Notes: generated by a model not told the origin, from the letters alone. A stretch of DNA of 64,000 bases from an uncultured Lentisphaerota bacterium (GCA_900320095.1 ONQZ01000004.1:4227-68226); one strand, 5' to 3'; shown: positions 3,578 to 57,466, numbered from the stretch's first letter. Numbers and translations are program-made.

Positions 3578-3712
3578 GTGCCGTAGCGGAGCACGGCACA
3601 ACTGTAGTGGAGGACTTGTCCTCCGTGCCGTAGCGGAGCACGGCACTACTCGACACACTCTGTGTGTGCCCGAGCGGAGCCGGGCACAACTGTAGTGGAG
3701 GACTTGTCCTCC
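3578..3712 (+). repeat. Double-hairpin (REP/BIME-like) repeat array, locus 1
   Basis: GTGCCGTAGCGGAGCACGGCAC at 3578-3599 and 3625-3646, and GTGCCCGAGCGGAGCCGGGCAC at 3666-3687. Each of two units is followed by linker aactgtagt and palindrome GGAGGACTTGTCCTCC (3609-3624, 3697-3712). Extra ACACAC-TCT-GTGTGT hairpin at 3653-3667. Confidence 0.9.
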
Positions 3713-5100
3713 TACCAGCCGAAAATTCGGTCTTCCATGCGCCGCTGATGAGGCGGCGGCAGAGGATCGACTCCGCACGGCGCCTCGTTCCCCCTGCCTG
3801 CCGCATGGACCGCCAGCGCGAGCGCCCAGAACCGGTCCGAATGTCCGGATTCGTCGCGTTCGGCGTCGTAGCGCACGTTTCCGGCGGCGGTCACGCTCCG
3901 CACGATCTTGTGCAGGTCGTGCCGCAGCACGTCGTCGGCGACGATCCGGATGCCGCGCGATTCGAACGCCGCCCGGACCGGCATGGCAAGCGCGGCCTTC
4001 ACAGGCCCCGTAAACGTCACGCTCTCCACGCGGTATTTCCCGTGGCGTTCCTGCATCTCCTCCGCCAGCATCATCCCGATCCCGGTCGCGTCGATGCAGA
4101 GGCGTTCCAGCCGGGCGTCGTCGAGGCGGCGCGCCAGGGCGTCGGCCTGCATGCGGAACGGCATGTTTTCCATGACTTCGTATCCGCTCTGCCACAGGAT
4201 GTCCCCGATGCGCGTCAGCTCGAAATACACCCCGACGTCCCTCTTCCGCCCCACGTCGTATCCGGCGTACCGGATCGCCTTCGGATGTTCGCTCAACGCT
4301 TTCTCAAGATCGCCCGCGTCGTTTTCGCACGCGCCGATCATGCCGTAGTCCAGCAGCGACGCGCCCGCCTCCGCCGCTTCGATCAGATACTGCGTCCGCC
4401 AGGCGTCTTCCGTGCGGCATTTCGCACGCATCGTCTTCAGCCACTCTTCGCGGCTCAATTCGCTCCCGGTTACGGCGTTGACGCGTTCCACAAATCCCTC
4501 TTCCACGGCATCCAATATGCTCGTTTTGTGGACGCTCCATCCCATCGCGTTCGCACCGTGTTCCGCCTCGTGAAGCATCCGGCAGAACGGCGATTCGCCG
4601 CTTCCGTCCACGCTCAGCGCGGACACCATTTCCAGCTGGCCGCCCCATGTGGTGCAGGGCATCGCCATGTCGATCACGCGTCCGCTGTCCTTGTGCAGGT
4701 CCGCCTCGTCGATCAGGATGTCCCCGCCCTTCCCGGCGAACGCCTCGGGCGTGCTGGACAGGCTGATGACGCGGCTGCCGTTGCCGTATTCCGCCGTGTA
4801 GGCGCGGATCCCGTGCAGGGGGTCGATGACCACGGCATCCTCCCCGGCGAGTCCGCGGCAGACCGCGTTGGCCGCCGCCGCCCATTTCGCGATGTAGTCC
4901 GTGATGAACTCGCGGGCGGTGAATTCGTCGCGGCTGGTCACCCACTGCACCGTCCCCGGCCGCCGCAGGCACTTGTCGTTCACGCGGAAGCTCGTGGCGT
5001 ACGTGATGCCGATCCGGCGCGATTTCGCGTACAGCTTCATTCGCGCGTCGTCCAGGATCCACCGTTTCTGGTACGGCAGAAAGTATTCCGACAGCTTCAT
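3712..5100 (-). CDS. Phage terminase large subunit
   Basis: 462 aa. ATPase part has a Walker-B-like DILIDEADLH. C-terminal RNaseH-like nuclease part has GYDVGRKRD, IDATGIG and HSDRFWALALA. Located at the head of the capsid module. Confidence 0.85.
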   Translation of the reverse strand: MKLSEYFLPYQKRWILDDARMKLYAKSRRIGITYATSFRVNDKCLRRPGTVQWVTSRDEFTAREFITDYIAKWAAAANAVCRGLAGEDAVVIDPLHGIRAYTAEYGNGSRVISLSSTPEAFAGKGGDILIDEADLHKDSGRVIDMAMPCTTWGGQLEMVSALSVDGSGESPFCRMLHEAEHGANAMGWSVHKTSILDAVEEGFVERVNAVTGSELSREEWLKTMRAKCRTEDAWRTQYLIEAAEAGASLLDYGMIGACENDAGDLEKALSEHPKAIRYAGYDVGRKRDVGVYFELTRIGDILWQSGYEVMENMPFRMQADALARRLDDARLERLCIDATGIGMMLAEEMQERHGKYRVESVTFTGPVKAALAMPVRAAFESRGIRIVADDVLRHDLHKIVRSVTAAGNVRYDAERDESGHSDRFWALALAVHAAGRGNEAPCGVDPLPPPHQRRMEDRIFGW

Positions 5101-5146
5101 CGTCCTGTCGTCTCCGTTTATAGTTTATTTTCGATTGATCGTCAAA

Positions 5147-6485: not shown

Positions 6486-9359
<2,874 letters not shown>

Positions 9360-10518: not shown

Positions 10519-10526
10519 ACACGACC

Positions 10527-13864: not shown

Positions 13865-15937
13865 ATGGCAACCGTCATCATCTCCAGCGGCATCACAAGT
13901 TCCGGTCTTGCCGTAAGTTCCGGCAACGGTCTGGAAGTTTTCGGCACGGCGGAGAATACCTCTGTCCTCACCGGCGGCTCCGCGACCGTATTCTCCGGCG
14001 GAAAAATGATCGTGACCCAGGTCGCCGAATCCGGTTTCGTGGACGTCTCCGGCGGCGTGGCGAACAGCACCACCGTCCTCGGAGGCGGCCGCATCCTCAT
14101 TTCCGCAGGCGGCAGCGCCAACGTGAACAGCATCCAGAGCGGCGGCTCCATGACCGTGGGACCGTCCGGCAGGGCGTCCCTCGTCGCGAACAGCGGCGGC
14201 TTCCTGACCGTTTCATCCGGCGGGACCGCCTACGTCGCGAACGCCGTTTCCGGCGGGGTTGTGGAGCTTCAGAACGGCGGGTCCGGCGTCTTCCTCACGC
14301 TTGCGAAGACCGGACGTCTGCTTGTCTCTTCCGGCGGCATCGCCGAAAAGGTCAATCTGAACGGCACCGCGACGGTTTACGCGGGCGGTTCCGCTTCGGG
14401 CGTGACCGTCTCGGACGGCGGCAGGTTCCTGATCTCCGGCGGCCTCGCGCAGGACGTCAATGTCCTCACCGGCGGAAACGCCGTTCTGTCCGGCGGCATC
14501 GCGAACAATGCCTCCGTCGCCTCCGATGGTTTCTTCACGATCTCTTCCGGCGGCACGGCATCCGGCGTCGAAGTCAACGGCTGGACCACCGTCCTGTCCG
14601 GCGGCGCGGCCGACAGCGTCGCGGTCAATTCCGACGCCTGGCTCGTCGTTTCCGGCGGCGGCAAACTGACCGGGCGGATGACCTTCGCAGCCGGCGCGTC
14701 CGTGAACGTCTACGGAAACGCCGTTCTCGACTTCGATATTTCCTCGCTCGCGCCCGGTTCGGATGCCCGCGTCAACGACCTTTCTCTCGTTCACGGCTCG
14801 CCCGAATTCACGCTTACGGTCTCCGGTTTGCAGGAACACGGCGACTATCTGCTTGCCGGAGGCGCCGCGAACTTCGCCAAAACTATCTCCGTCGTCGATA
14901 TGCTCGGCGAGTCGCTCGGCACGCTCACCGTCGGCGAGACCACGGACATCGGCGGCACGAACTACAAGCTCAACCTCACTGATGGCGTACTGTCCGTTTC
15001 GGTCGGAGTCGTCGAACCGTCTGGTCCGGCAAAAAACGATATTGATGGCAACGGCATCTCCGACGTGATGTTCGTGTGGACCGGAAACAATTATCAGCAC
15101 GGCTACTGGATGAACGGCACGTCCGAATGGCAGTCCGCCAACAGCGGCCATCCCGCCGACTGGGACAACCTCGGCTGTTACGACATGACCGGCAACGGCA
15201 AGGCGGATTCCGTGCTGTTCGGCAACGTGACCAGCGAGGCGGGCATCAAGGGCGCCTACATCGGGTTCTACTCCGACGCCATCGACAACACCGACGGCTC
15301 GACCTGGGTCAACATCGGCTACCTCACGAACGAGGACGATATCCAGTGGAAGAACAAGGTCGGCAACCTGACTGGAAACGAGGCAGGCGTGAACTCGATC
15401 GTCTGGTATGCGCCGGAGCTCTACGCGCTCGGCGTCTGGACCGACGGCACCGAAAACTGGATCACGCTCAGCGGCGATTTCGGCGGCTCCGACTGGACGC
15501 TCGTCGGCTGCGGCGACTTCGACGGCGATGGCAGGGACTCCGTGCTGATGAGTTATCTCGGCGGCAAAAAGTATTATGCCGTCGGCATCGACGGCACGGC
15601 AACGGACCTCGGCGCGGCCGACTGGTCAGGCTGGGAGGTCCGCGCGATCGGCGATTTCTCCGGCGACAAGAAGGACGACATCGTGCTGTTCCACAAGACG
15701 ACTGGCGCGATGGTCCTGTGCGCCGACGGAAATACGGACAGTTACACAACCATCGGCCAGCTCGACGCGCAGGACTGGTTCGTGGTCGGCGCGGGCGACT
15801 ACAACGCCGACGCGAAGGACGACCTGCTCGTCCGCCAGTATTCGACCGGCATGCTCGGCTATTACACCGGCGGCGACATGTCCCAGTGGAACGTGCTCGG
15901 CTACGGCGTTGATATGAACTGGACCGTCATAGCATAA
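13865..15937 (+). CDS. Leaderless repeat protein: N-terminal SGG-type beta-helix repeats + C-terminal FG-GAP/VCBS beta-propeller (paralog 1)
   Basis: 690 aa. More than 12 copies of a ~19-aa repeat (..SGG.A..T.V..GG...V..). Then D-x-[DN]-G-[DN]-G-x-D blades (DIDGNGISD, DMTGNGKAD, GDFDGDGRD, GDFSGDKKD, GDYNADAKD). No signal peptide seen. Confidence 0.8.
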   Translation: MATVIISSGITSSGLAVSSGNGLEVFGTAENTSVLTGGSATVFSGGKMIVTQVAESGFVDVSGGVANSTTVLGGGRILISAGGSANVNSIQSGGSMTVGPSGRASLVANSGGFLTVSSGGTAYVANAVSGGVVELQNGGSGVFLTLAKTGRLLVSSGGIAEKVNLNGTATVYAGGSASGVTVSDGGRFLISGGLAQDVNVLTGGNAVLSGGIANNASVASDGFFTISSGGTASGVEVNGWTTVLSGGAADSVAVNSDAWLVVSGGGKLTGRMTFAAGASVNVYGNAVLDFDISSLAPGSDARVNDLSLVHGSPEFTLTVSGLQEHGDYLLAGGAANFAKTISVVDMLGESLGTLTVGETTDIGGTNYKLNLTDGVLSVSVGVVEPSGPAKNDIDGNGISDVMFVWTGNNYQHGYWMNGTSEWQSANSGHPADWDNLGCYDMTGNGKADSVLFGNVTSEAGIKGAYIGFYSDAIDNTDGSTWVNIGYLTNEDDIQWKNKVGNLTGNEAGVNSIVWYAPELYALGVWTDGTENWITLSGDFGGSDWTLVGCGDFDGDGRDSVLMSYLGGKKYYAVGIDGTATDLGAADWSGWEVRAIGDFSGDKKDDIVLFHKTTGAMVLCADGNTDSYTTIGQLDAQDWFVVGAGDYNADAKDDLLVRQYSTGMLGYYTGGDMSQWNVLGYGVDMNWTVIA

Positions 15938-16173: not shown

Positions 16174-18411
16174 ATGTCAAAGATTATCATCGACAGCGAT
16201 AAGAACAATCAAACCATCAGCAGCGGCGTTTCCGCCTATGTGTGGAGCGGCGCGACGCTCAAAAACTCCTATGTCTCTTCCGGCGGCCGGCTCTACATCG
16301 AGAACGGGGCCGCCAGCGCCACCACCGTTTCAAAAGGCGGGTTCATGATCTTCAGCATGGGCTGTTCCGGCGGGACCAATTCGGTCCTTTCCGGCGGCAC
16401 CATGGCAATTATGTCGGGTGCGAACGTCGCCTACGTCACCGCGGCGAAGGGCGCGGCCATCATTCTGGAGGCCACTGCCAGCTCGTACTACACGCCTGCG
16501 ACCAAATTCACCGTCTCCTCCAACGGGGCCACCATCAAATGCACCGGCAGCACGTTCTCCGGCTGGGACAACATGAACACGCCCGGTTGCGCCCTGACCC
16601 TAGCTGGCGTTTCCGCATCCAGCATCAATGTCTCCAGCGGCTGCGTCCTGACCATCGGCGGCGTCAGCCGCTATGCCTCGGCCTCCGTCAACAAGGTGAA
16701 CGTCTACAACGGCGGCAAGGTCTACTTCACGCGCGTCGATACCGTCGGCACGGCTACGGCCCATGCCGGCGGTTCGCTCTTCGTCGCAGACGGCGCCACA
16801 GGGTCCGCCACCATCATCGAAAACGGCGGCAATGTGACGCTGTATTACGGGGACGAAATGCTGAACGATCCGGGCTGGGGTATTTCCATCAAGAAAAACA
16901 CGTTCTACAACGTCGTCGCCAGCGGCTACGATGTTCAGGATGTCGCCGCCCACTCCGGCACCACCGGCGTCAACACCACCCTGCTGGACAGCGCCTATTT
17001 CCGCGTCTACAGCGGTGGCAAGGCGTACGACACAGTCACCTCCGGCGGCACGCTGGACATTCGCTCCGGGGGCGTCGCCAGCAATGTCTACAACAATACC
17101 GGTCTGGTATGGGTTTCCAGCGGCGGCAAGATCACAGGCAAGATATCCATCAATCACCGTATCATCGTCGAAGACGGAGGCATTATCGACTTCGACATTT
17201 CCGGCATTCGCGGAGGTGATGCCGCCAGGTTCGACAACTACTACAACCTCCCGACCAACACAGGTTCCCCCACGCTCACGCTGACCGTCTCCGGACGCCA
17301 GCCCGACGGCACCTACACCCTCGCCACCGGCGCATATCAGATCGAAAAGAAGACGACCGACGCGGAGAAGACCCTGACCGTCTACAACACCTCCGGCTCG
17401 AAACTCGGCGCCGTCAAGCTCGGTCAGACCGTGAAGATCGGATCCGCCAGCTATTCCCTGAATCTCAACTCCGGATACCTCTCCGTCACCATCAGCGGCA
17501 GCGCGCCCGCCAAGGTCGTGAAATCCGACATCGACGCCAACAACAAGAGCGACATCCTCTTCCAGTACACCGGCGGCAACTATCAGACCGGATTCTGGAT
17601 GAACGGCTCCAACACCTGGAAAGGACAGGGCGTCCTGCACAGCAAGGACTGGACTCTGCTCGGCGCGCACGATATGAACGGCGACGGCAAGGCGGACACC
17701 GTCTACGTCGGAAATGTCACCGTCAACGGCGTGAAGGGCGCGTACATCGGCTATTACAACGCGGGCATCGACACCGACGCCAACTGGAAGAACATCGGCT
17801 ACCTGAACAACTCGGGCAACGTCGCCTGGAACAACGTCGTCGGCAATCTGACCGGATCCTACTGCAAAAACGACATCGTCTGGCATGCGCCTTCCCTCGG
17901 CGCGCTCGGCGTCTGGACCGACGGCACCGCCAACTGGACGAGTCTCGGCTCCGGATTCGATTCCCAGTGGAAGATCGTCGGCACCGGCGACTTCAACGGC
18001 AACGGTCAGGAATCCGTCCTCATGGCTCACGCGGGCGGCAACAACTACTACGCCGTGGACCTCTACGGCAACATCACCCACATGGGCGCATCCACTGGAG
18101 GCTGGGAAGTCGTCGCCATCGGCGATTTCTACGGCGACGGAAAGGACGACGTCATCGCCTTCAACAAGACCTACGGGCTCGTCGACGTCTGGAGCGACGG
18201 CAAGACCAACGTCGACGTCAACATCGGACAGGTCAACGCGAAAGACTGGTTCATCGCCGGAGCCGGCGATTACAACGGCGACGGAAAAGACGATCTCCTG
18301 GTCCGCCAGAAATCCACGGGCATGCTCGGCTACTACGCCGGCGCGAACATGAAGTCCGGCTGGCAGACGCTCGGCTACGGCGTCAGCAACGCCTGGACCG
18401 TCATCGCATAG
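16174..18411 (+). CDS. Leaderless repeat protein: beta-helix repeats + FG-GAP/VCBS beta-propeller (paralog 2)
   Basis: 745 aa with the same architecture as 13865..15937. Shared middle motif (..DFDIS...TLTVSG...Y.L.L..G.LSV) and shared C-terminus (LLVRQ.STGMLGYY...GYGV...WTVIA). Confidence 0.8.
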   Translation: MSKIIIDSDKNNQTISSGVSAYVWSGATLKNSYVSSGGRLYIENGAASATTVSKGGFMIFSMGCSGGTNSVLSGGTMAIMSGANVAYVTAAKGAAIILEATASSYYTPATKFTVSSNGATIKCTGSTFSGWDNMNTPGCALTLAGVSASSINVSSGCVLTIGGVSRYASASVNKVNVYNGGKVYFTRVDTVGTATAHAGGSLFVADGATGSATIIENGGNVTLYYGDEMLNDPGWGISIKKNTFYNVVASGYDVQDVAAHSGTTGVNTTLLDSAYFRVYSGGKAYDTVTSGGTLDIRSGGVASNVYNNTGLVWVSSGGKITGKISINHRIIVEDGGIIDFDISGIRGGDAARFDNYYNLPTNTGSPTLTLTVSGRQPDGTYTLATGAYQIEKKTTDAEKTLTVYNTSGSKLGAVKLGQTVKIGSASYSLNLNSGYLSVTISGSAPAKVVKSDIDANNKSDILFQYTGGNYQTGFWMNGSNTWKGQGVLHSKDWTLLGAHDMNGDGKADTVYVGNVTVNGVKGAYIGYYNAGIDTDANWKNIGYLNNSGNVAWNNVVGNLTGSYCKNDIVWHAPSLGALGVWTDGTANWTSLGSGFDSQWKIVGTGDFNGNGQESVLMAHAGGNNYYAVDLYGNITHMGASTGGWEVVAIGDFYGDGKDDVIAFNKTYGLVDVWSDGKTNVDVNIGQVNAKDWFIAGAGDYNGDGKDDLLVRQKSTGMLGYYAGANMKSGWQTLGYGVSNAWTVIA

Positions 18412-18421: not shown

Positions 18422-18581
18422 GTGCCGTCGCGTAGCACGGCACTACCGCCGTCCAGGGCTTGCCCTGGCAAGCGAAGCTGAGAGCACTACTTCAGTGGAA
18501 GACTTGCCCTCCGTGCCCGAGCGGAGCCGGGCACTACTGCAGTCCAGGGCTTGCCCTGGTGCCCCGGCGACGCTCGGGCAC
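18422..18581 (+). repeat. Double-hairpin (REP/BIME-like) repeat array, locus 2
   Basis: Hairpin-1 copies at 18422-18443, 18513-18534 and 18559-18581. 16-nt palindromes CCAGGGCTTGCCCTGG at 18453-18468 and 18544-18559, and GGAAGACTTGCCCTCC at 18497-18512. 9-nt linkers taccgccgt, tacttcagt, tactgcagt. Confidence 0.9.
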
Positions 18582-18600: not shown

Positions 18601-20802
18601 TCAGTGGGCGTTGATCTGCTTGTAGTCGGCGGCGAACCGTTTCACTTCTTCCTGCGAGATCAGGCCGTCGGCGCAGAGGTCCTCCATGGAACGCTGGAGC
18701 GTGCACATGCCGTCCTTCAGGCTGGTCTCGATCACCGTCTGCAGCTGATGCGTCTTGCCCTCGCGGATGAGCGCCTGCACGGGCGGCGTGCCGATCATGA
18801 TCTCGAACGCGGCGATGCGGCTGGACCCGTCGATGCTCGGGATGAGACGCTGCGAGATCACGGCGAGCAGGGTGCTCGCGAGCTGGAGCCGGATCTGGTT
18901 CTGCTGGTACATCGGGAACGAGTCGACGATGCGGTCGACCGTCTGCGGCGCGCTGTTCGTGTGGATGGTGGCGAAGACGAGGTGTCCGGTCTCGGCGGCC
19001 GTGAGCGCGGCGGAGATCGTCTCGGTGTCGCGCATTTCGCCGACCATGATGACGTCCGGGGCCTCGCGCAGGGCGTATTTGAGGGCGGCGGCGAAACTGT
19101 GCGTATCGGCGTGAAGCTCGCGCTGCTCGATGATCGAATTGATGTTGCGGTGCACGTACTCGATCGGGTCCTCGATCGTGATGATGTGGGCGTTGCGCGT
19201 GCGGTTGATGACGTCGAGGAGCGAGGCGAGCGTGGTGGATTTGCCGCTTCCGGTCGGGCCGGTCATGAGGATGAGCCCCTGGCGTTTTGAGCAGAGCCCA
19301 GACACGACCTCGGGCAGTCCGAGCTGGGCGGGCGTCGGGATCTTCACGTTCACGACGCGGGCGACCATGCCGAGCGTGCCGCGCTGAAAGAACGCGTTCA
19401 CGCGGAACCGCGAGTTCGGGATGTTCAGTTCCTTGCCGAAATCGACGGACAGCGCGAAGTCGAGCTCGCGGTTCTCCTCCAGCTCCACGCGCTGCCGCTG
19501 GTTGATCACGCTGAAGAGCAGCCGCCGGACGTCGTCGTTGTCCAGCACCGGCATGTTCAGCTCGCGCAGTTCGCCGTTGATGCGGAGCGTAGGGCGCACG
19601 CCCGTCGACAGGATGAGGTCGCTCGCCTTCACCTGAAGCGAGGCGAGGAACAGCGTCCGCATGTCGACCACGGTGTCGTCGGTCGCGCCCTCGAGCTTCG
19701 AACCGTAGTAGCTGCGGAACGCGTCGACGCCGCTTTCCATGCCGCGCACGAGCAGGTCGAATTCGTCGCGGTTGTCCGCCGCGAGCCGGGCGTCGTCCAG
19801 CGCGATCTTCCCGGTCTGGTACAGACGGAAGATGGACCGGTTGAACGGGATCATGCCCTGTTCGATGTTGCTGCGGAGCGCGTCGTCCAGCGACCTGTAG
19901 TCGCGCCCGGCGACGAGCTTGCGGACCAGAGCCGTGCCGAGCAGGATCTCGACCGCCGGGATCATGCCGCCGCCCGTGGACGGGATCAGACGCTGCGCGA
20001 CGATGCCGTTCAGCGCCGCCCCGAGGTCGGTCGCGGTCTGTTCGCGCCCGTCCTCCGGGAACATGTTGATGATGCGTTCGACCGCCTGCACCGAGCCGGA
20101 CGTGTGGACCGTGCTGATGACGAGATGCCCGGTGAGCGCGGCGTTGATGGCGACCGCGATGGTCTCCGGGTCGCGCATTTCGCCGATCACGATCACGTCC
20201 GGATTCTCGCGGAGCGCGCTGCGGAGCGCCGAGGAGAACCCGCCCTCGCGGTGCGTGTTGATCTCCCGCTGGGAGACCACGGACTGACGGTCGGAATAGA
20301 CGAATTCGATCGGGTCCTCCAGCGTGAGAATGTGCTTGGGCATGGTGCGGTTGATGTGGTTGATCATGGCGGCGAGCGTGGTGGATTTGCCGCAGCCCGT
20401 GGTGCCCGCCACCAGGATCAGGCCGCGCGGCGCCTCGGCGAGCTTGTCAAGCAGCGCCGGCAGGTTCAGCTCCACGGTCATGATGTCGTCGCCGTTCAGG
20501 ATCGGGCGGATCGCCGCCGAAGGCCCGCCGATGGCGCGGAAGAAGTTCACGCGGATGCGGCTGCCGTCCGGAAGCCGCCACGAGGCGTCGAACGAACCGG
20601 ACTCCGCATACGCCGCCTCGCCCCGTTCGCCGATGACCGTCCGCCGGAACGCGTCCATGGACTCCGCGGAGACCGGGCCGAACGTCCCGAGGGGCGCGAC
20701 CACGCCACGGATGCGTGCATTCGGTTTTTTCCCGGCGGAAAGGAAGAGATCGGAGACGCGTGCTCCGGCGGCAAATTGCAAGATCGGCAGAATCGTATTC
20801 AT
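18601..20802 (-). CDS. Fused tandem type IV pilus retraction-type ATPase (PilU-like N-half + PilT-like C-half)
   Basis: 733 aa from ATG 20802. Two complete ATPase cores: GTTGCGKST / EDPIEF / DVIVIGEMRD / TGHLVISTVHT and GPTGSGKST / EDPIEY / DVIMVGEMRD / TGHLVFATIHT. Only the second half has the PilT-type ..ALIREGK.. motif. Confidence 0.85.
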   Translation of the reverse strand: MNTILPILQFAAGARVSDLFLSAGKKPNARIRGVVAPLGTFGPVSAESMDAFRRTVIGERGEAAYAESGSFDASWRLPDGSRIRVNFFRAIGGPSAAIRPILNGDDIMTVELNLPALLDKLAEAPRGLILVAGTTGCGKSTTLAAMINHINRTMPKHILTLEDPIEFVYSDRQSVVSQREINTHREGGFSSALRSALRENPDVIVIGEMRDPETIAVAINAALTGHLVISTVHTSGSVQAVERIINMFPEDGREQTATDLGAALNGIVAQRLIPSTGGGMIPAVEILLGTALVRKLVAGRDYRSLDDALRSNIEQGMIPFNRSIFRLYQTGKIALDDARLAADNRDEFDLLVRGMESGVDAFRSYYGSKLEGATDDTVVDMRTLFLASLQVKASDLILSTGVRPTLRINGELRELNMPVLDNDDVRRLLFSVINQRQRVELEENRELDFALSVDFGKELNIPNSRFRVNAFFQRGTLGMVARVVNVKIPTPAQLGLPEVVSGLCSKRQGLILMTGPTGSGKSTTLASLLDVINRTRNAHIITIEDPIEYVHRNINSIIEQRELHADTHSFAAALKYALREAPDVIMVGEMRDTETISAALTAAETGHLVFATIHTNSAPQTVDRIVDSFPMYQQNQIRLQLASTLLAVISQRLIPSIDGSSRIAAFEIMIGTPPVQALIREGKTHQLQTVIETSLKDGMCTLQRSMEDLCADGLISQEEVKRFAADYKQINAH

Positions 20803-20950
20803 CGTGAAAGCCTTCCGTGAGGTTGTTGTTTTCGCATTAAAATATCCGTGAAACTGTGATTTGTCAAGTCCCATAGAAAAGAAAACGCACGCGAAAAGCG
20901 CCGAAACCGTAAAAAAACACGGAAAAACGCGGAAAAAAGGGAAAAGCGCT

Positions 20951-26528: not shown

Positions 26529-26563
26529 AAAAAAAAGACGTCCGGCTCGCATGGAGTCGGACG
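26529..26563 (-). terminator. Rho-independent terminator of lipoprotein gene
   Basis: On the minus strand: CGTCCG-N13-CGGACG stem-loop (26539-26563) followed by TC + T8 (26529-26538). Confidence 0.7.
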
Positions 26564-26611
26564 CCGTGAATCGGGTTGACGGCTCGGAGAACGGCTCTCC
26601 CGTTCCCCTTT

Positions 26612-26656
26612 GTGCCCGGGCGCGCCCGGGCACTGCCGGTAGGGGGCTATGCCTCC
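26612..26656 (+). repeat. Double-hairpin (REP/BIME-like) unit, locus 3
   Basis: GTGCCCGGGCGCGCCCGGGCAC (26612-26633), linker tgccggtag, imperfect palindrome GGGGGCTATGCCTCC (26643-26656). It ends exactly at the stop-codon complement (tca 26657-26659) of the lipoprotein gene. Confidence 0.8.
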
Positions 26657-31242: not shown

Positions 31243-31287
31243 AATCGAAAAGACATGCTGCCGACCTGCCGATACGAGGGGTCCAAT

Positions 31288-32199: not shown

Positions 32200-32230
32200 G
32201 CGGCGGCATCCGAGTTGTGGATACCGCCGC
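32200..32230 (+). repeat. Hairpin repeat GCGGCGGCATCC-N7-GGATACCGCCGC, copy 2
   Basis: 12-bp stem with one mismatch, immediately 3' of the LRR lipoprotein gene. Confidence 0.7.
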
Positions 32231-32248: not shown

Positions 32249-32340
32249 GTGCTCACGCGAAACTGAGAGCACTGTGTCAGCACACTCCGTGTGTGCTCAA
32301 GCGAAGCTGAGAGCACTATCGCAGTGCAGGCGCTGCTTGC
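32249..32340 (+). repeat. Double-hairpin (REP/BIME-like) repeat array, locus 4
   Basis: 24-nt hairpins GTGCTC-N12-GAGCAC at 32249-32272 and 32293-32316. AGCACAC-TCC-GTGTGCT hairpin at 32279-32295. Linker tatcgcagt, then imperfect palindrome GCAGGCGCTGCTTGC (32326-32340), which abuts the metG stop complement (tca 32341-32343). Confidence 0.85.
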
Positions 32341-41393: not shown

Positions 41394-41469
41394 GAAAACT
41401 CCTCACACGTTCGAATGAAAAGGCTTTTCGATAGTATTCCATAAATATACACCCTGTAACCGCTTTTTC

Positions 41470-41830: not shown

Positions 41831-41864
41831 AAATGACGGACAAACCGTCTGATTCGTCCGTCAT
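41824..41864 (-). terminator. Rho-independent terminator of thiI
   Basis: ATGACGGAC (41833-41841) pairs with GTCCGTCAT (41856-41864). On the minus strand the stem is followed by TTTCTTTT. Confidence 0.7.
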
Positions 41865-41883
41865 ATCGTCATTTCACTGATTT

Positions 41884-43140
41884 TCAATCATTTATATCGT
41901 GTGACGGAATGTCGGTCAAACCGTCATCCGTCACCAGCTTGATCTCATCAAAAGCCTTCTGTATCGCCGCGTCCATGTCGGGTATCTTCGATTCCTCGAA
42001 CTCCACAAAATGAAGCTTGGCATGAATGACAGGAGAAGGCGGTGCAAAGACCGTGCAGCTGTCCGCCATAGGTTCGATGGAAATGTCAAATGTTCCAATG
42101 TCTTCCGCACGGGCGATCGTCTCCAGTTTATCCATGCCGCAGAGTGGACGCACGATCAGATCCGGCACGGCACGGTCGATCACGGACATGTTCACGACCG
42201 TCTGGCTGGCGACCTGACCGATCGCCTCGCCGGTCACGATCCCGTACAGATTATGCTTTCTGCAGAGTTTCGAGGCGATGCGCATCATCATGCGCCGGTA
42301 CAGGACGGTGCGGAATTTCGGATCGCAGTTGTCGCGGATGAGTTTCTGAACCTCGGAAAGATTGCAGGCATACAGCACGCCGTGCGGCTGGAACCTGTTG
42401 ATGATCTTCGCGATACGCCAGACTTTCGTGACGGATTCGATCGGCGTATATGGATAACTGTGGAACGTAAGAAAGTCCATCCGGCAGCCGCGTTTCATCG
42501 CCATCGCGCACGCCACCGGCGAATCGATCCCGCCGGAAAGCATGCCGAGCAGCGGAGAATTGGAGCCGACCGGAAGGCCGCCGCGCGCCTTGACCGTTTC
42601 GAGGAAGATCGTGGAATTCTTTTCGCGTATCTCGACGCCGATGGAAATATCCGGATTCATCAGGTCGACCTGGATCTTATCCTCCCCGAACATTTCTTCG
42701 ATCATGGAAGCTGTTTCGATTTCGATCTCTTTGGAACGCAACGGAAAACTCTTGTCGGAACGCCGTGCGCGCGTCCGGAATTTCACTGGACGACCGAGAG
42801 TCTCAAGTTTCTGTTCGAACAACGGTTTCACGGCATTCTTAATATGATCCAGAACGGCTTCGATGGTGCGTTCCCCCTCGATACAGAAAGAAAACGAATC
42901 CAGGCCGAAACAGTCTCTCAGGCGTTCTTTCAGATACTCCTGTTCCTCGTCCGTGAAAACCTCAAATTCGTTTTTATGTATGAAAATACGGCCGCGCATT
43001 TTCACATAATTCAGACCCGGAACACGGTCTTTCGTCATGCGTTTCATATTGCGGATCAGCGCATTTTCAAACATGCTGCGATTGTTTCCTTTTGTCGCGA
43101 TCTCGTTGTAACGGCAGATGATGGAATTGTAGGATGCCAT
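41884..43140 (-). CDS. thiI: tRNA 4-thiouridine(8) synthase ThiI (THUMP + PP-loop, no rhodanese domain)
   Basis: 418 aa. PP-loop LSGGIDSPVA. N-terminal ferredoxin-like/THUMP region. Confidence 0.92.
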   Translation of the reverse strand: MASYNSIICRYNEIATKGNNRSMFENALIRNMKRMTKDRVPGLNYVKMRGRIFIHKNEFEVFTDEEQEYLKERLRDCFGLDSFSFCIEGERTIEAVLDHIKNAVKPLFEQKLETLGRPVKFRTRARRSDKSFPLRSKEIEIETASMIEEMFGEDKIQVDLMNPDISIGVEIREKNSTIFLETVKARGGLPVGSNSPLLGMLSGGIDSPVACAMAMKRGCRMDFLTFHSYPYTPIESVTKVWRIAKIINRFQPHGVLYACNLSEVQKLIRDNCDPKFRTVLYRRMMMRIASKLCRKHNLYGIVTGEAIGQVASQTVVNMSVIDRAVPDLIVRPLCGMDKLETIARAEDIGTFDISIEPMADSCTVFAPPSPVIHAKLHFVEFEESKIPDMDAAIQKAFDEIKLVTDDGLTDIPSHDIND

Positions 43141-43159
43141 ATTGTTTCTCCTGTCTTGC

Positions 43160-44230
43160 TTAAACAGCGCGTCCGGCTGTAATATGTACGATTTGTGAAT
43201 ATTGCGTCAGAGGATTATCGGGTATTTCCGTAAAGGAACAGAATACCTGTTTTGCTTCCGATATCTTATGATAAAATGCTTCCTGCGTCTTTTTGTCAAG
43301 ATCGCCGGTGGCATCATCCACGATAACGACTGTATTATCCTTTGACATCGAATGATTTTTGACGATATCGAATTCCGCTTCCTTCAGCGCGAACGATGTC
43401 GCGCGGCACTGTCCGCGGGAACCGTACAATTTCAAGGATTTTCCATCTGCGACAAAATCGAAATCGTCAAGATGCGGTCCGGTTGTCATGTATCCGTTCA
43501 GTCTGTCTTTTTCCAGATTCCGTTCGAGTTTTTCCTCAAAGATTTTCGGATCGGAAAGCTCATGAACCGTCTTCAATTTCAACTGCAGATCGGCGAGTTC
43601 CGGCTTCAGTTCCGCCATGATGTTCCGCATGAAATCCGATAAGATTCTGAGGTGGATTTCACGCGCCTGGACGATCTCCGCGCCGTATTTTGCGAGCGCC
43701 GGATGATACGACCGGATCACATCGTTGTTCGTATCCTTCATCCGAAGCAGACAATTTCTGTTTTTGACCCCGTTATAATACGCCTGCAGCGCGGTAAAAT
43801 ATCCATGGTCCAGCATGGAAATGAACATATCGAGAAATTTTCTTCTTACCTGGGACCGCCCGGTGATGATTTCCGGATCGTCCGGCAGAAACGTGACCGT
43901 ATTGAACGAACCGGCGAACTCGCTGGCACGCGGGACATGTTTTCCGTCCACGACCAGTTTCCGTGTCTCGCCGAGCTCGACCGCGAGCTGGCGCGACCAG
44001 TCCCGGAATGAAACGGAAGCTCCGACGATCGCGGACGGCGCATGAATTTTTATCATTTCCGAGGTGCGCGAAGTACGGAACGACCTCAGATTCGCGAGAT
44101 AAAACAACGCTTCCAGCAGACTGGTCTTTCCCTGGCCGTTCGATCCGCAGAGAAACACCGTCGGTGCCTCAAAACGCAGGGACACCGATTCGAACAACCG
44201 GAAATTCTGCAGAACCAGCGAATTTACCAT
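43160..44230 (-). CDS. recF: DNA replication and repair protein RecF
   Basis: Walker A GSNGQGKTSLLEA, then FYLANLRSFRT. Canonical position downstream of dnaN. Confidence 0.9.
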   Translation of the reverse strand: MVNSLVLQNFRLFESVSLRFEAPTVFLCGSNGQGKTSLLEALFYLANLRSFRTSRTSEMIKIHAPSAIVGASVSFRDWSRQLAVELGETRKLVVDGKHVPRASEFAGSFNTVTFLPDDPEIITGRSQVRRKFLDMFISMLDHGYFTALQAYYNGVKNRNCLLRMKDTNNDVIRSYHPALAKYGAEIVQAREIHLRILSDFMRNIMAELKPELADLQLKLKTVHELSDPKIFEEKLERNLEKDRLNGYMTTGPHLDDFDFVADGKSLKLYGSRGQCRATSFALKEAEFDIVKNHSMSKDNTVVIVDDATGDLDKKTQEAFYHKISEAKQVFCSFTEIPDNPLTQYSQIVHITAGRAV

Positions 44231-44386
44231 GGAGAAGTCCCCGCGAAAAGATTACTGAAAATGAAGTGATTGAATACGGAAGTCCCGCCGCATGCACGGT
44301 TTGAGCTTACGGCAGGACTTTCAGCACATTGTTTCAGCACGATCACTTTCTCCGACCGTACTGTTGCGCTGCATGACTTGCTGTTC

Positions 44387-45484
44387 TTATTTGTTCCTCA
44401 TCGGCATGATGACATACAGGAAGCCGTCGCCGCTTTCGATCGCGATCGGGCTCATGACGTCGTTCACCTTGATGAACACGTTGTCGACCTGGATGTGCTT
44501 GAAGGGATCCAGGAAGAAGTTCGAGTTGAACGAAGCGGACATCTCCTCGCCGTCGTACTGGATGGGCACGCTTTCGCGGCCTTCGCCGATGTTGCTGTTC
44601 GTTTCGAAGAGCATGCTGTCCGATTTGAACGTGAGGGAGACTTTCGGCGAACCGCTTTCCGCGAGGGTCACACAGATGAGTTCGAGCGCATAGATCACGC
44701 TTTCGCAGGAGACTGTCACGGTCTGCTTGAAGGAAGCCGGAATGACCTGGCGGTAGTTCGGGTAGTTGCCTTCGATGAGCTTGGAGGTGATCACGGATGC
44801 GCCGACCTCGAACACGACCTGGTTTTCGGCGATGTTGATCGCGACTTCGCCTTCCTTTTCGAGGAGGCGCTTGAGCTCGTTCGCGGCCTTTTGGGTGATG
44901 ATGATATCGCCCTCGGAACCTTCGGGAAGCTCTTCGAAGACTTTTTCGCAAAGGGCAAGGCGTTTGCCGTCGGTGGCGACCGCGGTGAATTTGCCGTCGC
45001 GGACGGAGAACAGGATGCCCTGCAGGACCTTGCGGGAATCTTCGAGGCTGGCGGCGTATGCGATGCGTTCGATGATAACCGCCATGTCCGCCTGCTTCAT
45101 GGAGAAGGAACGGATGAATTTGACCTCGTCCTTCTTCGGATAATCGGCGGGATTGAGGCCGAGGAGCATGATGGACGCGGTGCCGCACTTGATCGTGGAG
45201 TGGAAGTTGTCGCCGCTTTCGATCTCGATGAAGTCGCCGCGGAACTTGGAAACGAGGGTGAGCATCTTCTTGGCGGGAAGTGTGGTCTCGCCGGCCTCGA
45301 TGACCTCGGCGTCGACGACCGTTTCCATGCGGATCTCAAGGTCGGTGCCGGTGAGTTTGAGCTTGCCGTCGGCCGCCTCGAACAGGATATTGGAAAGCAC
45401 GGGGAGGGTATTGCGCGTATTGATGATATTGCCGACCTTCTGCAGCGCCTTGAGCATGGTCTCTCTGGAAATCTTGATTTTCAT
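44387..45484 (-). CDS. dnaN: DNA polymerase III beta sliding clamp
   Basis: 365 aa. Starts MKIKISRETMLKALQKV. Three-domain clamp length, with recF downstream. Confidence 0.95.
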   Translation of the reverse strand: MKIKISRETMLKALQKVGNIINTRNTLPVLSNILFEAADGKLKLTGTDLEIRMETVVDAEVIEAGETTLPAKKMLTLVSKFRGDFIEIESGDNFHSTIKCGTASIMLLGLNPADYPKKDEVKFIRSFSMKQADMAVIIERIAYAASLEDSRKVLQGILFSVRDGKFTAVATDGKRLALCEKVFEELPEGSEGDIIITQKAANELKRLLEKEGEVAINIAENQVVFEVGASVITSKLIEGNYPNYRQVIPASFKQTVTVSCESVIYALELICVTLAESGSPKVSLTFKSDSMLFETNSNIGEGRESVPIQYDGEEMSASFNSNFFLDPFKHIQVDNVFIKVNDVMSPIAIESGDGFLYVIMPMRNK

Positions 45485-45740
45485 GGTGGGTTGCCTCCGA
45501 TCTTCCGGCGGACTTTTCTGTGCCGCCCGGAAAAGTTATTGAGATTGGTTTCTGATATGATTTTAACCTGAATTGAGCAAATGTAATAGGAATAGGGGCT
45601 GTCAATATGTCAACAACCCTTCGTTCCCGCTTCAAACACTTTTTTCGGAAGATGTTCACAAAATGGTTTGACTTTGTTCGGAAACGGTGTTCTATTAACA
45701 CTGTGGATTTTTATTTAACCCCTGTTGGCAGGTGACGAAC

Positions 45741-46397
45741 ATGGATATGAACAACAATGTCAAGAAGCACATGGATACTCTTCTGGCCCGGTATCCCGAT
45801 CTCCGGGACACGGCGGAAAAAATCCATACATTATATTTTAACCTGGAAAACGTTTTTTTCAAGGACAAAACGCTATTTATCTGCGGAAATGGCGGAAGTT
45901 GTTCAGACGCAGAACATTTTATTGCCGAGCTTGGAAAAGGATTCCTGAGCCGCCGGCATATCCCGTCCGAACTCGGCGAAGCTCTGGAAGCCGCCTATCC
46001 CGGCGAAAACTATCCGGAACGGCTTCAGAGAGGGTTCCGCGCCATTTCCCTGAACGGTCATCCGGCGCTTGCGTCGGCGTACACCAATGATGTCGATCCT
46101 CTCATGACTTACGCCCAGCAGCTGTATATCTTCGGTAAGAAGGGCGATGCCGTGCTCGGGATCACGACTTCCGGCAACGCGAAAAATATTTTGAATCTCT
46201 TCAAAGTGGCGCGTGTGCTCGGAATTTCCACCTATCTCCTGACCGGGAACAACGAGGAAGGCGTGTGCAGAAAATACGCCGATTTTATTTTGGATGTCCC
46301 GGCGCGTGAAGCATACCGCGTGCAGGAATACCATCTGCCCATCTACCACGCTTTGGCGATGATGCTGGAGGAAAGGTTCTATGGCGCAGGCGAATGA
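45741..46397 (+). CDS. SIS-domain protein, phosphoheptose isomerase GmhA/DiaA-like
   Basis: FICGNGGSCSDAEHFIAEL and ..ITTSGNAKN.. are typical of GmhA/DiaA. An alternative GTG start lies at 45732. Confidence 0.8.
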   Translation: MDMNNNVKKHMDTLLARYPDLRDTAEKIHTLYFNLENVFFKDKTLFICGNGGSCSDAEHFIAELGKGFLSRRHIPSELGEALEAAYPGENYPERLQRGFRAISLNGHPALASAYTNDVDPLMTYAQQLYIFGKKGDAVLGITTSGNAKNILNLFKVARVLGISTYLLTGNNEEGVCRKYADFILDVPAREAYRVQEYHLPIYHALAMMLEERFYGAGE

Positions 46398-47091
46398 ACT
46401 CAAGCATGTAGCCGTTATTCTGGACGGCAACGGACGCTGGGCGGCGCAGCACGGAGTTGAACGCAAGGAAGGCCACCTGGCGGGCGCGAACCGTGTGGTA
46501 GATTTCATGAACTATATCTCGCGCTACGAGTCCATCCGCTATGTCACGCTGTACGCGTTCAGCACGGAAAACTGGAAGCGCTCGAAAGAGGAAGTCGACG
46601 CGCTGATGAATATTCTGGCGCAGTTTCTCGACGACAACCTCGAAGTCCTGCTGAATGAAAAGGTCCGCCTGCTTACGGCGGGCGACATTTCCGCACTGCC
46701 GGAACCGTGCCGTGTCCGTCTTGACAAGGTCAAACGCGAAACTGCGAAAGATTTTACGCGCACATTCATCCTCGCGCTCAACTACGGTTCGCGCATGGAG
46801 ATCACGGATGCCGTGAAAGCGATTGCGAATGAAGTGAAAAATGGTACGCTTTCACCTGAAGACATCACGGAAAAGACGGTGGCGGATCATCTGTATCTCC
46901 CCGAAGTGCCGGATCCCGACCTGCTGATCCGAACCAGCGGCGAGGAGCGCGTGAGCAATTTCCTGCTGTGGCAGATATCCTACAGCGAGTTTTATTTTAC
47001 GAAGACCTTATGGCCGGATTTCGACATCAACGAGTTCGACAAGGCGGTCCAGGCTTATTACGGCCGGAAACGCAGATTCGGAGGCAGATAA
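46381..47091 (+). CDS. uppS: Undecaprenyl diphosphate synthase
   Basis: HVAVILDGNGRWA and RTSGEERVSNFLLWQISYSEFYF. Confidence 0.93.
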   Translation: MAQANELKHVAVILDGNGRWAAQHGVERKEGHLAGANRVVDFMNYISRYESIRYVTLYAFSTENWKRSKEEVDALMNILAQFLDDNLEVLLNEKVRLLTAGDISALPEPCRVRLDKVKRETAKDFTRTFILALNYGSRMEITDAVKAIANEVKNGTLSPEDITEKTVADHLYLPEVPDPDLLIRTSGEERVSNFLLWQISYSEFYFTKTLWPDFDINEFDKAVQAYYGRKRRFGGR

Positions 47092-55322: not shown

Positions 55323-55333
55323 GGTAAGACTGC

Positions 55334-57466
55334 ATGGCGGGCGGGTTCGACATGATGCGGTTTCAGGAGTGCAGCGACACGCTGATCCCCTCGATTCGCA
55401 AAAATGCGAAGTGGATCACATTCTGGGTCTTCGCCTGCTTCGTCCTTTTCCTCGGACTCGGCATCTACCCCGCCATCCGCTCGGAAGCCCGCTGGTTCGA
55501 GGTCGTTCGCGAAATGCTTATGACCGGCGACTGGCTGCATCCGCGCATCAACGGCCAGGCGTACTTCGACAAGCCGCTCGTCAGCTACTGGTTCGCCGCG
55601 GTCGTCTCGAAGCTCGCGGGCGGACACGTCACCGAGCTTTCCGTCCGTCTCCCGAGTGCACTTTTCGCGCTGGCCGGACTCGCCTGCATCATTTCCGTCG
55701 CCCGCAAGTTCTATTCCGAGCGCACGGCGTATCTGGCGGGCTGGATCCTGCTCAGCACGTATTCGTTTATCGTGTGGGGCCGCCTCGCCGAGGCGGACAT
55801 GGAGCAGACGGTCTTCATCGTGATGGCGGTTACGGTGTACCTGCACCACCGGGAAACGCCGTCCTTCTGGGCGTATTTCGCGTTCTGGAGCTGCTGTGCG
55901 GTCGGTGCGCAGACCAAGGGGCTGCCCGCATTCGTCATCCCGCCCGCCCTGGCGCTCATCGACTGCGTCGTCCGGAAATCGTTCCGTGTGCATCTGAACT
56001 GGAAATTCTTCCTCGCGTTCTTCCTCGGCGGCCTCTGCCTGTACGCCGTGCCGTTCGTGCTGGAGGCGCTGACCTCGGAGCATTACGGCGCGAGCGGGAT
56101 CGTGCTGGTCTTCCGCGAGAACCTGATGCGCGTGTTCAATCCGTGGGACCACAACAAAGACCCGTTCTACGTGTATTTCCTGTATCTGCCGCGCCTGATG
56201 ATCCCGTGGACGCCCTTCTTCATCTTCGCGGTCATCGATTATGTCCACGGGCTCATCCGTGCCGTTGCGAAGCAAGGCACTGCTTCTGTGGAGGACTTGT
56301 CCTCCCGCAAGCCGTGCTCGAAGGACACGCTGTGGCTGTTCGCCTCGATGGTGTTCATCTTTATCCTGTTCTCCGCCTCGCGGTCGCGCCGTTCGTACTA
56401 CATCCTGCCGATCGTGCCGTGGTGCGCGCTCTTCACCGCCGCGTGGTTCTCCCAGCCGCAGGAGGGTTGGTCTTTCCTGCGAAAAATTACTGACAGATTC
56501 GCGAAGCTCGTGGACGCGCTGATTCCGGCGGCCGCCATCCTCCTGATCGTGTTTGCCGTCCTGACTCCGGGGATCACCTTCCTCGACTTCATCGGACTGG
56601 CTACCGGGAGGACCAGCCCTCTGCAGTTTATCCCGATTGACAGAAGGGAACTGGACATTTTGCTGTCCACTGTCCTTGCTCCGTTCGCCCTCATCGTCGG
56701 GATCGGGTTTCTGGTTTTCTGGCGACGTTCGCGGAAGAAACTCAAACAGGAGAATGCCGAGGGCGTTTTCGCGCCCGCCACCGATCCTCTGAACCGTGTG
56801 GTCCCGTTCGTGGCGTTCGTCCTGTTCACCGTCTTCTCCTTCCTGATCCCGCAGCTGAGCCGGACCAAATCCATCGAACCGGCCGCCCCCTTCCTGCGCG
56901 AGCAGGCCGCCTTGCTGAAGGAGATTCTTGCGAAGGACCCGGACTATATCAACCGTGTGGCGTTTTTCGGTTCGTCCAATGGCGCGGAACTGGCGTTCTA
57001 CCTGGATCTTCCCGCGCCGGTGAAGATGTTCTCGCTGGAGAAGCTTGACGACTCCAACCGCACGTTCATTTCCGACACGGTCGACATCAAGGGCCCGGAG
57101 GAGTTCATGGAGTTTCTGCATGAAGTGAAGGAACACGGCGGCATGGTGATCACGCGCGGAGAATGGGTGCGGCACATCATGGAATACCAGAACAACTCGC
57201 CCGAACCGAGGAATTACCCCACGTCTTCCCCGATGTACAGGTATCTGACGGATATCTGTTACTGTGATGGCTCCGGACTCAGCGAGCCGGCCTTGCGCCG
57301 GGAGAGACGGCTTAAAGCCGCCCTGGCCGCCGACCCCGAAAACGCAAAACTTCAGCGCAAGCTCGACAAACTGACTGAAAAACAAGTCGTGATATTCTAT
57401 TCAAGACCCAAATCCAATGCTCAGCCCGCCGAAGCGGACGGCGCAGAAGGGACCACGCAACCATGA
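55334..57466 (+). CDS. arnT: Undecaprenyl-phosphate-L-Ara4N:lipid A transferase-like glycosyltransferase (GT39/GT83, ArnT-like) with C-terminal extension
   Basis: 710 aa, polytopic. N-terminal loop motif EARWFEVVREM..GDWLHPRINGQAYFDKPLVSYW. Sits inside the arn cluster. About 150 aa longer than typical ArnT, as I recall it. Confidence 0.75.
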   Translation: MAGGFDMMRFQECSDTLIPSIRKNAKWITFWVFACFVLFLGLGIYPAIRSEARWFEVVREMLMTGDWLHPRINGQAYFDKPLVSYWFAAVVSKLAGGHVTELSVRLPSALFALAGLACIISVARKFYSERTAYLAGWILLSTYSFIVWGRLAEADMEQTVFIVMAVTVYLHHRETPSFWAYFAFWSCCAVGAQTKGLPAFVIPPALALIDCVVRKSFRVHLNWKFFLAFFLGGLCLYAVPFVLEALTSEHYGASGIVLVFRENLMRVFNPWDHNKDPFYVYFLYLPRLMIPWTPFFIFAVIDYVHGLIRAVAKQGTASVEDLSSRKPCSKDTLWLFASMVFIFILFSASRSRRSYYILPIVPWCALFTAAWFSQPQEGWSFLRKITDRFAKLVDALIPAAAILLIVFAVLTPGITFLDFIGLATGRTSPLQFIPIDRRELDILLSTVLAPFALIVGIGFLVFWRRSRKKLKQENAEGVFAPATDPLNRVVPFVAFVLFTVFSFLIPQLSRTKSIEPAAPFLREQAALLKEILAKDPDYINRVAFFGSSNGAELAFYLDLPAPVKMFSLEKLDDSNRTFISDTVDIKGPEEFMEFLHEVKEHGGMVITRGEWVRHIMEYQNNSPEPRNYPTSSPMYRYLTDICYCDGSGLSEPALRRERRLKAALAADPENAKLQRKLDKLTEKQVVIFYSRPKSNAQPAEADGAEGTTQP
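56259..56305 (+). repeat. Double-hairpin (REP/BIME-like) unit embedded in frame inside arnT, locus 5
   Basis: GTGCCGTTGCGAAGCAAGGCAC (56259-56280), linker tgcttctgt, GGAGGACTTGTCCTCC (56290-56305). Same spacing as the intergenic units. Encodes ..AVAKQGTASVEDLSS... Confidence 0.8.

Follow-up and report, generated by a model that had tools for sequence, protein, structure and literature searches.

A two-hairpin REP/BIME-like repeat family of rumen Lentisphaerota with one hairpin often flush with native stop codons

Introduction

The DNA analyzed here (GCA_900320095.1 ONQZ01000004.1:4227-68226; hereafter, at its full length of 64,000 nucleotides, the window) comes from an uncultured Lentisphaerota bacterium. 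At five loci – beside genes for a phage-type large terminase (TerL), an FG-GAP surface protein and a secretion ATPase, a DUF6655 lipoprotein and methionyl-tRNA synthetase (metG), and within a glycosyltransferase gene – it carries a repeat unit of about 47 nt made up of two different GC-rich hairpins, hairpin 1 (H1) and hairpin 2 (H2), that are joined by a 9-nt linker and can form on either strand. We describe the family to which these units belong, the pairing and covariation of its stems, its position 3' of genes, the contact of H2 with native stop codons, and the gain and loss of units between relatives. It is a lineage-specific family of short structured repeats in rumen Victivallales (Lentisphaerota), resembling repetitive extragenic palindromic (REP) sequences and bacterial interspersed mosaic elements (BIMEs).

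Results

Repeat loci in the window

A covariance model (CM) found ten units in the window, all on the plus strand and all at the same five loci (Table 1); there was no further credible copy. Sequence reading, motif counts, a repeat search and the CM agree on the loci, the parts of the unit and the coordinates that had been proposed from the sequence of the window alone (the original prediction). The H1 pattern occurs eight times against 1.3 expected, GGAGGACTTGTCCTCC eight times against 0.6, and CCAGGGCTTGCCCTGG four times against 0.45, and in none of the three cases did a shuffled sequence equal the observed count. The repeat search returned a 47-nt direct-repeat family with seven copies.

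Table 1. Repeat units and terminator-like hairpins in the window (H1v, H2v: variant forms of H1 and H2)
Feature	Coordinates	Strand	Components	CM score (bits)
Locus 1, unit 1	3578..3624	+	H1 3578-3599; linker aactgtagt; H2 GGAGGACTTGTCCTCC 3609-3624	70.5
Locus 1, unit 2	3625..3667	+	H1 3625-3646; third hairpin type ACACACTCTGTGTGT 3653-3667; hairpins present in fold	30.8
Locus 1, unit 3	3666..3712	+		70.6
Locus 2	18422..18581	+	units 18422-18468, 18469-18512, 18513-18559	64.2, 22.9, 67.7
Locus 3	26612..26656	+	single degenerate unit: H1 GTGCCCGGGCGCGCCCGGGCAC; linker tgccggtag; H2 GGGGGCTATGCCTCC	22.7
Locus 4	32249..32340	+	two variant units; parts from sequence: H1v 32249-32272; GCACACTCCGTGTGTGC 32280-32296; H1v 32293-32316; linker tatcgcagt; H2v GCAGGCGCTGCTTGC 32326-32340	10.7, 30.2
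Locus 5	56259..56305	+	one unit, inside PMT_2/GT39 gene	70.8
Terminator-like hairpin of DUF6655 gene	26529..26565	-	stem 26539-26544 with 26558-26563, then T8	
metG intrinsic terminator	32200..32230	-	12-bp stem, then TTTTGTGTT; top match of terminator scan	

Gene identities in the window were checked by Pfam. Three stop contacts had been predicted, and their coordinates proved right: at locus 1 the TerL stop is a TAG at 3712-3714, the last C of H2 (3712) being the complement of the G of that stop; at locus 3 H2 is flush with the TGA of the DUF6655 lipoprotein gene (26657-26659, minus strand); and at locus 4 the variant H2 is flush with the metG stop (32341-32343, minus strand). Within locus 1 the hairpin ACACACTCTGTGTGT overlaps the following H1 by 2 nt. 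Locus 2, which also holds an orphan H1 at 18559-18581, is flanked by a convergent gene pair: the FG-GAP gene ends 10 nt before H1, its stop occupying 18409-18411, and the T2SSE ATPase gene has its stop at 18601-18603. In a correction to the original prediction, the unit at locus 5 is not intergenic but stands in frame in a 710-aa PMT_2/GT39 glycosyltransferase gene (55334..57466, plus strand), where it encodes (R)AVAKQGTASVEDLSS.

Structure and covariation of the unit

H1 is 22-24 nt long and consists of a 7-bp stem with a 1-nt bulge on the 5' side and a GCGNAGC tip, which in the 23-nt variant reads GCGNNAGC; its predicted position was correct, but not the 6-bp stem with a 10-nt loop that had been drawn for it. 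Stem positions 6-7 and 16-17 covary (GT/AC, CG/CG, GG/CC). The linker has the approximate consensus T[A/G]C-N3-AGT. H2, of 15-16 nt, is a 6-7-bp palindrome with a CTTG loop that occurs in the forms GGAGGAC.., GGAGGGC.., CCAGGGC.. and CCAGGAC.., with compensatory changes in all of them. In some units a third hairpin type (ACACAC-TCY-GTGTGT) takes the place of H2; in the window this applies to ACACACTCTGTGTGT and GCACACTCCGTGTGTGC.

The CM was trained on 48 distinct units. In the stems of these units 97.8% of cells are paired, a value that drops to 36-60% in slid controls, and double-change cells number 54 against 17.7 expected, a count reached by 0 of 500 shuffles. Folding with ViennaRNA gives exactly the two proposed hairpins for the consensus unit – on either strand as DNA – and likewise for the arrays as RNA. 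Both H1 tip forms correspond, on one strand, to the published consensus of a hyperstable DNA mini-hairpin (PMC13037366), a match that we treat as a lead on strand and molecule rather than as a test.

Several loci carry, 5' of H1, a weakly conserved leader of 8-11 nt that approximates (A)TTGAATCC(C) (L080 1670-1680, L102 5468-5478, L083, L108; related DNA is labelled by L numbers). Where a gene on the same strand ends near H1, its stop codon stands directly before this leader, 8-11 nt from H1, and the element may therefore extend some 10 nt further on the H1 side. One metagenome-assembled genome (MAG) has the unit inside a larger repeat, some 119 nt long, with CCGGACCGG and a T-run at its end (L026 1080-1540), the only context seen in which a terminator-like tail follows the unit.

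Distribution

Species-representative genomes were scanned with a degenerate pattern, and a second scan covered metagenome contigs. In the first scan every genuine copy among the matches listed came from rumen Victivallales/Lentisphaeria MAGs; the second gave at least 120 further loci with at least 129 pattern matches, the genuine copies among the matches listed again being from rumen Lentisphaeria/Victivallales DNA. Application of the CM to 50 related 8-kb loci (390 kb) yielded 86 units. The prediction of a dispersed, modular, palindromic family of REP/BIME type is thus borne out by many more copies in related genomes. Pattern matches outside Lentisphaeria (Mesorhizobium, Modestobacter and others) proved, where checked, to be coincidences in conserved protein-coding motifs. 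The proteins of the window recur on rumen or gut metagenome contigs, labelled Lentisphaeria where named.

An Rfam scan of the window returned only two tRNAs above the gathering threshold and no family that matches the unit, and Rfam E-value searches of two loci gave only eukaryotic miRNA and snoRNA models at chance level. A literature search found no paper tying Lentisphaerae to extragenic palindromes. When viral contigs were searched with TerL, a single relative of 41% identity was returned, which is uninformative.

Genomic context

Genes around the repeats were called by codon log-likelihood, with a caller trained on the Pfam-confirmed genes of the window. Among 65 arrays, 24 lie between convergent genes, three between divergent genes, seven inside genes, and nine lack one called neighbor; the 22 situated in tandem gene pairs comprise 12 downstream of an opposite-strand gene and 10 downstream of a same-strand gene. 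Units occur singly or in head-to-tail arrays of two to five, spaced 46 to 51 nt apart. Of 18 multi-unit arrays, 15 are wholly head-to-tail, and inverted units were seen only in L016, L052 and L058. The predicted constancy of orientation therefore holds within the window and fails elsewhere, where inverted units stand a few hundred bases apart.

Orientation bears on the proposal that the repeats act at the level of DNA, as structural or binding elements of the sort suggested for BIMEs (gyrase, integration host factor (IHF), a nucleoid protein) or as priming signals, with extruded hairpins acting on the chromosome. As DNA, one strand folds as well as the other, the GCGNAGC/GCGNNAGC tip is known as a hyperstable DNA motif of replication and priming sites, and all five loci of the window share one orientation. 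Elsewhere, however, orientation is mixed. A comparison of orientation with replication gave a split of 42 to 23, with confounding: local GC skew simply follows gene orientation, and for this reason no link between unit orientation and the direction of replication could be shown. Nor does such a role give a reason for nucleotide-exact contact with stop codons, and we consider it quite improbable.

The original prediction had also raised the possibility that the units are terminators. As repeated Rho-independent terminators they would account for GC-rich hairpins at gene ends, enriched between convergent genes, and T-runs do follow a few copies, as in L026. Of 131 units, however, just 6 have a U-run after them on the strand that carries the abutting genes, and 13 on the opposite strand; it is because U-tracts are absent that the units do not qualify as terminators. 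Canonical terminators are found further downstream. At metG, a 12-bp hairpin with a T-run sits beyond the repeat array, and at the DUF6655 gene a hairpin followed by T8 sits beyond the unit (the terminator scan did not list it, probably owing to its 13-nt loop), which would put the unit in the 3' untranslated region (UTR) of this gene. Two DUF6655 orthologues without the unit (L126, L127) have an ordinary terminator after the stop. Some copies, moreover, are in frame inside genes. The terminator suggestion is thus not upheld, and we rate it as very improbable. Given their position between the stop codon and the true intrinsic terminator, units would be transcribed within 3' UTRs, and they appear to be 3'-UTR passengers, mostly downstream of genes.

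Contact of H2 with stop codons

In the first data set, 17 of the 36 genes that face H2 end at offset -1 or 0, and seven more end at 1-8 nt. The independent metagenome set gave a similar picture, with 19 of 45 gene ends at offset 0 or less. After collapsing orthologues, 53 gene ends facing H2 remained: 21 at 0 or less, nine at 1-8 nt, three at 9-40 nt and 20 further away. For the 21 of 53 that are flush (or overlap by 1 nt), P is about 1e-25 when compared with a uniform distribution. Gene ends on the H1 side are 8-11 nt away at the closest, except where an inverted unit shows its own H2 to the left-hand gene (L016, L058). Across 340 genes, unrelated perfect hairpins had no preference for offset 0 and resembled a coding-sequence control. 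A preferred distance to stop codons, as predicted, is therefore confirmed by two scans, and it is specific to the family and highly non-random. General deletion pressure closing the gaps between stops and hairpins is ruled out, given that hairpins outside the family show no spike.

The flush genes are ordinary ones: ruvA, amt, an Fe-ADH gene, mnmE, lptF/G, phoH and a hydrogenase gene. The proteins keep their native C-termini: that of MnmE is CIGK, Pfam profiles are covered to their last positions, the TerL C-terminus is IFGW* in filled and empty alleles alike, and the end of the DUF6655 gene likewise does not differ between them. Flush sites use all three stop codons, in keeping with genomic usage (TGA 213, TAA 86, TAG 19). 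These two observations, native C-termini and all three stops at genomic frequencies, rule out that the element supplies its own stop and truncates genes. TGA and TAA abut H2, and TAG overlaps it by one base, an overlap that, as a pair of RuvA orthologues suggests, may have arisen from TGA|GGAGG through loss of one G. The flanking bases are biased, with a pyrimidine at -1 in 50 of 53 cases and at +1 in 46 of 53. A simple insertion target T[CT]A was ruled out, as this triplet is never found beside H2 in copies that lie clear of a stop.

At one locus (L023 2241-2300) a DNA methylase gene has CGA where relatives of the family show a flush TGA; its open reading frame (ORF) continues across the entire element, which adds a tail of some 20 residues (GGQALHCSSAVLRDGTETV).

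Intragenic copies, empty alleles and turnover

Presence/absence polymorphism had been proposed as a check, and it was found at GT39, metG, DUF6655 and TerL as empty and filled alleles and as one to three units per site. At one and the same codon, GT39 orthologues carry no unit, one unit or two to three units. Two of the empty alleles, whose proteins are 92-93% identical to that of the window, differ from it by exactly 45 nt, between CCG and CCG. The helicase gene hrpB has one in-frame unit in one species and three tandem units with a 48-nt period in another (L065 5321-5463, L095 5060-5106; also L135, L214 and L224), and these encode RAGAKPGTAAVEDLSS repeats. HrpB units share orientation and frame with those of GT39 and encode R[AV]xAK[PQ]GTxxVEDLSS. 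GT39 and HrpB are the only two hosts of intragenic copies here, with 0 to 3 units.

Outside genes, metG is followed by two units in the window, by one in another strain, and by one plus an extra canonical H2 in L125. The DUF6655 site is filled in the lineage of the window and in L125 and is empty in L126 and L127, and at TerL of a Mu-like prophage remnant four relatives have 3, 1, 0 and 0 units. In five intergenic ortholog pairs, units at orthologous sites are 82-98% identical, compared with 88-96% for coding flanks and 64-87% for adjacent intergenic DNA. Within a genome each locus has its own linker, and identical copies do not recur from one locus to another, so nothing points to a recent burst from a master copy. 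Target-site duplications were looked for at array ends and none was seen.

Search for a mobilizing enzyme

The original prediction had linked the repeats to REP-associated tyrosine transposases (RAYTs) through a GTAG or CTAC tetranucleotide and had noted that the window contains no RAYT gene. In REP-RAYT systems a single-copy Y1 transposase gene has its cognate REPs on both sides. Counted on the alignment, CTAC follows H1 in about 17 of 48 units and CTGC in most others; read from the complementary strand, the tetranucleotide before H1 is GTAG in those 17 or so, GCAG in the majority of the rest and GTTG in a few, and its final G belongs to the stem. GTAG/CTAC is accordingly no conserved tag. 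As to the enzyme, tblastn with three Y1-transposase probes, a search of limited sensitivity, gave no match in the window or in about 170 Lentisphaeria loci (some 1.3 Mb of element-bearing DNA); as a positive control, the same probes picked up an IS200-like gene in a locus unrelated to the family. None of the window genes with a Pfam assignment is a transposase, the remaining called genes having no Pfam match. Four inverted pairs bracket ordinary genes, for a GH43 enzyme, a GH35 enzyme, a pseudopilin-like protein and a Sel1 protein. The absence of a RAYT gene from the window thus stands; these searches lend the link to RAYTs no support, though a single RAYT gene may be present elsewhere in a genome of 4-5 Mb.

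These results bear on an explanation of the stop contact by insertion bias. The repeat would then be a selfish, non-autonomous element, comparable to miniature inverted-repeat transposable elements (MITEs) or REPs and moved in trans by an enzyme acting on single-stranded DNA, such as a Y1/RAYT-type transposase with its gene elsewhere in the genome, and its H2 end would be targeted to the first base after the stop; the flush position would be the footprint of targeting, later blurred by small indels. Empty and filled alleles at orthologous sites (exactly 45 nt at GT39; DUF6655; TerL) are in line with this, as are the sharp spike at 0 with its short tail at 1-8 nt, the restriction of the spike to the family, the flanking pyrimidines, the in-frame copies that both GT39 and HrpB carry in varying number across lineages, and an H1 tip whose mini-hairpin motif is known from single-stranded DNA origins. 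On the other hand, no Y1 transposase was found in the 1.3 Mb searched or between inverted copies, there is neither a target-site duplication nor a shared flank motif (T[CT]A included), and the diversity of linkers and copies shows no recent master-copy burst. We know of no DNA enzyme that recognizes a stop codon as such. Insertion bias is in our judgment the main rival explanation, if on the unlikely side.

Comparison with known repeat systems

In known families, the ends of REPs often touch stop codons or supply them, the usual location of REPs is between convergent or unidirectional ORFs, they also occur inside ORFs (a bacterium of the Planctomycetes-Verrucomicrobia-Chlamydiae (PVC) group included), and head-to-tail dimers are rare (PMC3733652). 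The present family resembles REP/BIME and REPIN-RAYT systems of Enterobacteria and Pseudomonas in its short, GC-rich, imperfect palindromes, which in REPs measure 20-40 bp, present in many copies, single or arrayed with short linkers; in its location between convergent or same-direction genes, in 3' UTRs and often a few bases from a stop; in its retention at orthologous sites of related species; and in the G[T/C]AG that precedes H1 on the complementary strand and recalls the GTAG tag. Copy number, palindromy and gene-end context are thus those of a REP/BIME family, which in-frame intragenic copies also fit. It differs in that the unit combines two unrelated hairpins in fixed order, arrays are head-to-tail rather than inverted pairs (Y/Z, REPIN), a strict GTAG (or CGTC) tag is not conserved – GTAG being present in only about one third of units – no RAYT was found in the DNA searched, the host phylum is Lentisphaerota, and the stop codon touches the hairpin at the untagged end. 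The hairpin with an immediate U-tract that defines an intrinsic terminator is likewise not its arrangement.

The GTAG/CGTC REP super-families (Di Nocera et al. 2013), which include ORF REPs of Opitutus terrae and Rickettsia palindromic elements, offer a second comparison. There, too, repeat ends touch or overlap stops, whole units are found in frame and translated in known protein genes, CGTC families have no dedicated transposase, and the PVC superphylum is already represented. Like Rickettsia palindromic elements, whole units of the present family stand in frame in conserved protein genes and are absent from close orthologues. Its sequence and two-hairpin design are different, however, and its intragenic copies are restricted to GT39 and HrpB, in constant orientation and frame, with 0 to 3 units.

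PATEs, miniature elements derived from IS200/IS605, likewise carry a pair of subterminal hairpins but neither terminal inverted repeats nor target duplications, and their presence/absence can be seamless. Here, by contrast, the two hairpins are dissimilar, TnpA was not found in the 1.3 Mb searched, and a conserved target tetranucleotide is present at neither end.

Finally, E. coli REPs within 15 nt of a stop are reported to cause ribosome stalling and to reduce translation (Liang et al. 2015, cited through PMC12306157). Common to these translation-linked REPs (Liang, Rudd and Deutscher 2015) and to our family is a stable hairpin within reach of a ribosome on the stop; according to that report any distance of up to 15 nt works, whereas the spike described here is at exactly 0.

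Other features of the window

Positions 1-5100 are the end of a Mu-like prophage head module (genes for a gp36-like protein, the gpT major head protein, protease I and the gp28-type large terminase) that directly adjoins uvrA (6486-9359). The order TerL, a gene of 318-332 aa, uvrA recurs in relatives, with TerL 86-91% identical, so the module appears to be a prophage remnant passed on by vertical descent and not a recent insertion. Two adjacent paralogous genes for FG-GAP/AIDA-like surface proteins (13865-15937 and 16174-18411) are 75-79% identical in their C-terminal DNA, about 2475 nt apart (repeat families D4, D6 and D13). The 757-aa T2SSE-type secretion ATPase (18601-20874) apparently consists of two P-loop ATPase halves (repeat D16, 76% identical, 1146 nt apart). 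A BspA-type leucine-rich-repeat gene at 39099-41324 has an internal period of about 66-69 nt (family D2); a second LRR_5 gene (31255-32181) is absent from L125, where metG directly follows a KH/R3H gene. G+C content is 0.50-0.55 at 40000-47000 and 62000-64000, against about 0.60-0.65 elsewhere. The first of these stretches, which holds thiI, an SMC_N/AAA_15 ATPase gene and neighbors, may be acquired DNA.

Discussion

The feature that calls for explanation is the absence of any gap between H2 and the stop codon. The explanation that we prefer, and to which we give an even chance, is selection acting in mRNA, through blocking of exonucleases together with interaction with the terminating ribosome. 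As with REPs of E. coli, the hairpins would block 3'-to-5' exonucleases; with H2 starting at the stop, a terminating ribosome would have to melt it, which could tune the output or the decay of the upstream gene. Selection for ribosome contact, or against an unprotected single-stranded gap, would then hold the spacing at zero, and new units would arise by slippage or duplication within arrays together with rare mobilization.

Several points weigh against this explanation. Transcription of the units, the 3' ends and any effect on expression are all inferred from DNA sequence. Judging by known REP effects, which need just 15 nt or less, exact zero spacing would be left unexplained. About half of the arrays also follow, at varying distances, the 3' end of an opposite-strand gene, so that an RNA function would have to operate in both orientations or in a subset. 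Empty and filled alleles and in-frame intragenic copies point to mobility beyond selection alone, and the match of the H1 tip to a DNA mini-hairpin hints at a role in single-stranded DNA rather than RNA. The spike with its short tail, the specificity to the family, the pyrimidines at both flanks and the want of a shared target, for their part, fit selection and insertion bias alike.

A further reading, improbable in our estimation, is that translation termination is sensed by the element itself or by its mobilizing agent, the element being placed on, or functional only at, the first nucleotide after the stop. In one form of this reading the repeat would be mobile DNA directed in its integration to the point where ribosomes cease to cover the transcript; in the other it would be a 3' module that contacts the terminating ribosome, leading to stalling, tagging or read-through. 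If translation is sensed in this way, read-through would add a tail GGQVLHCSS..., as already fixed in the methylase gene of L023.

REP-type repeats are abundant, their spread and function are debated, and nearly all work on them has been done in Proteobacteria. Since REP contacts with stops, intragenic REPs and stalling are already in the literature, the family described here shows a known habit more sharply, and does so in a further phylum and with a new unit design: not a new kind of system, but an extension of the REP kind to rumen Lentisphaerota with an unusual head-to-tail, two-hairpin unit. It provides a clean quantitative signal – about 40% of gene ends facing H2 are flush, and neither the other end of the element nor unrelated hairpins show this – which makes it directly testable whether REPs near stops reflect insertion bias or selection on termination and mRNA decay. 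Natural alleles with no, one, two or three units, among them in-frame copies in two enzymes, are ready comparison material for this purpose.

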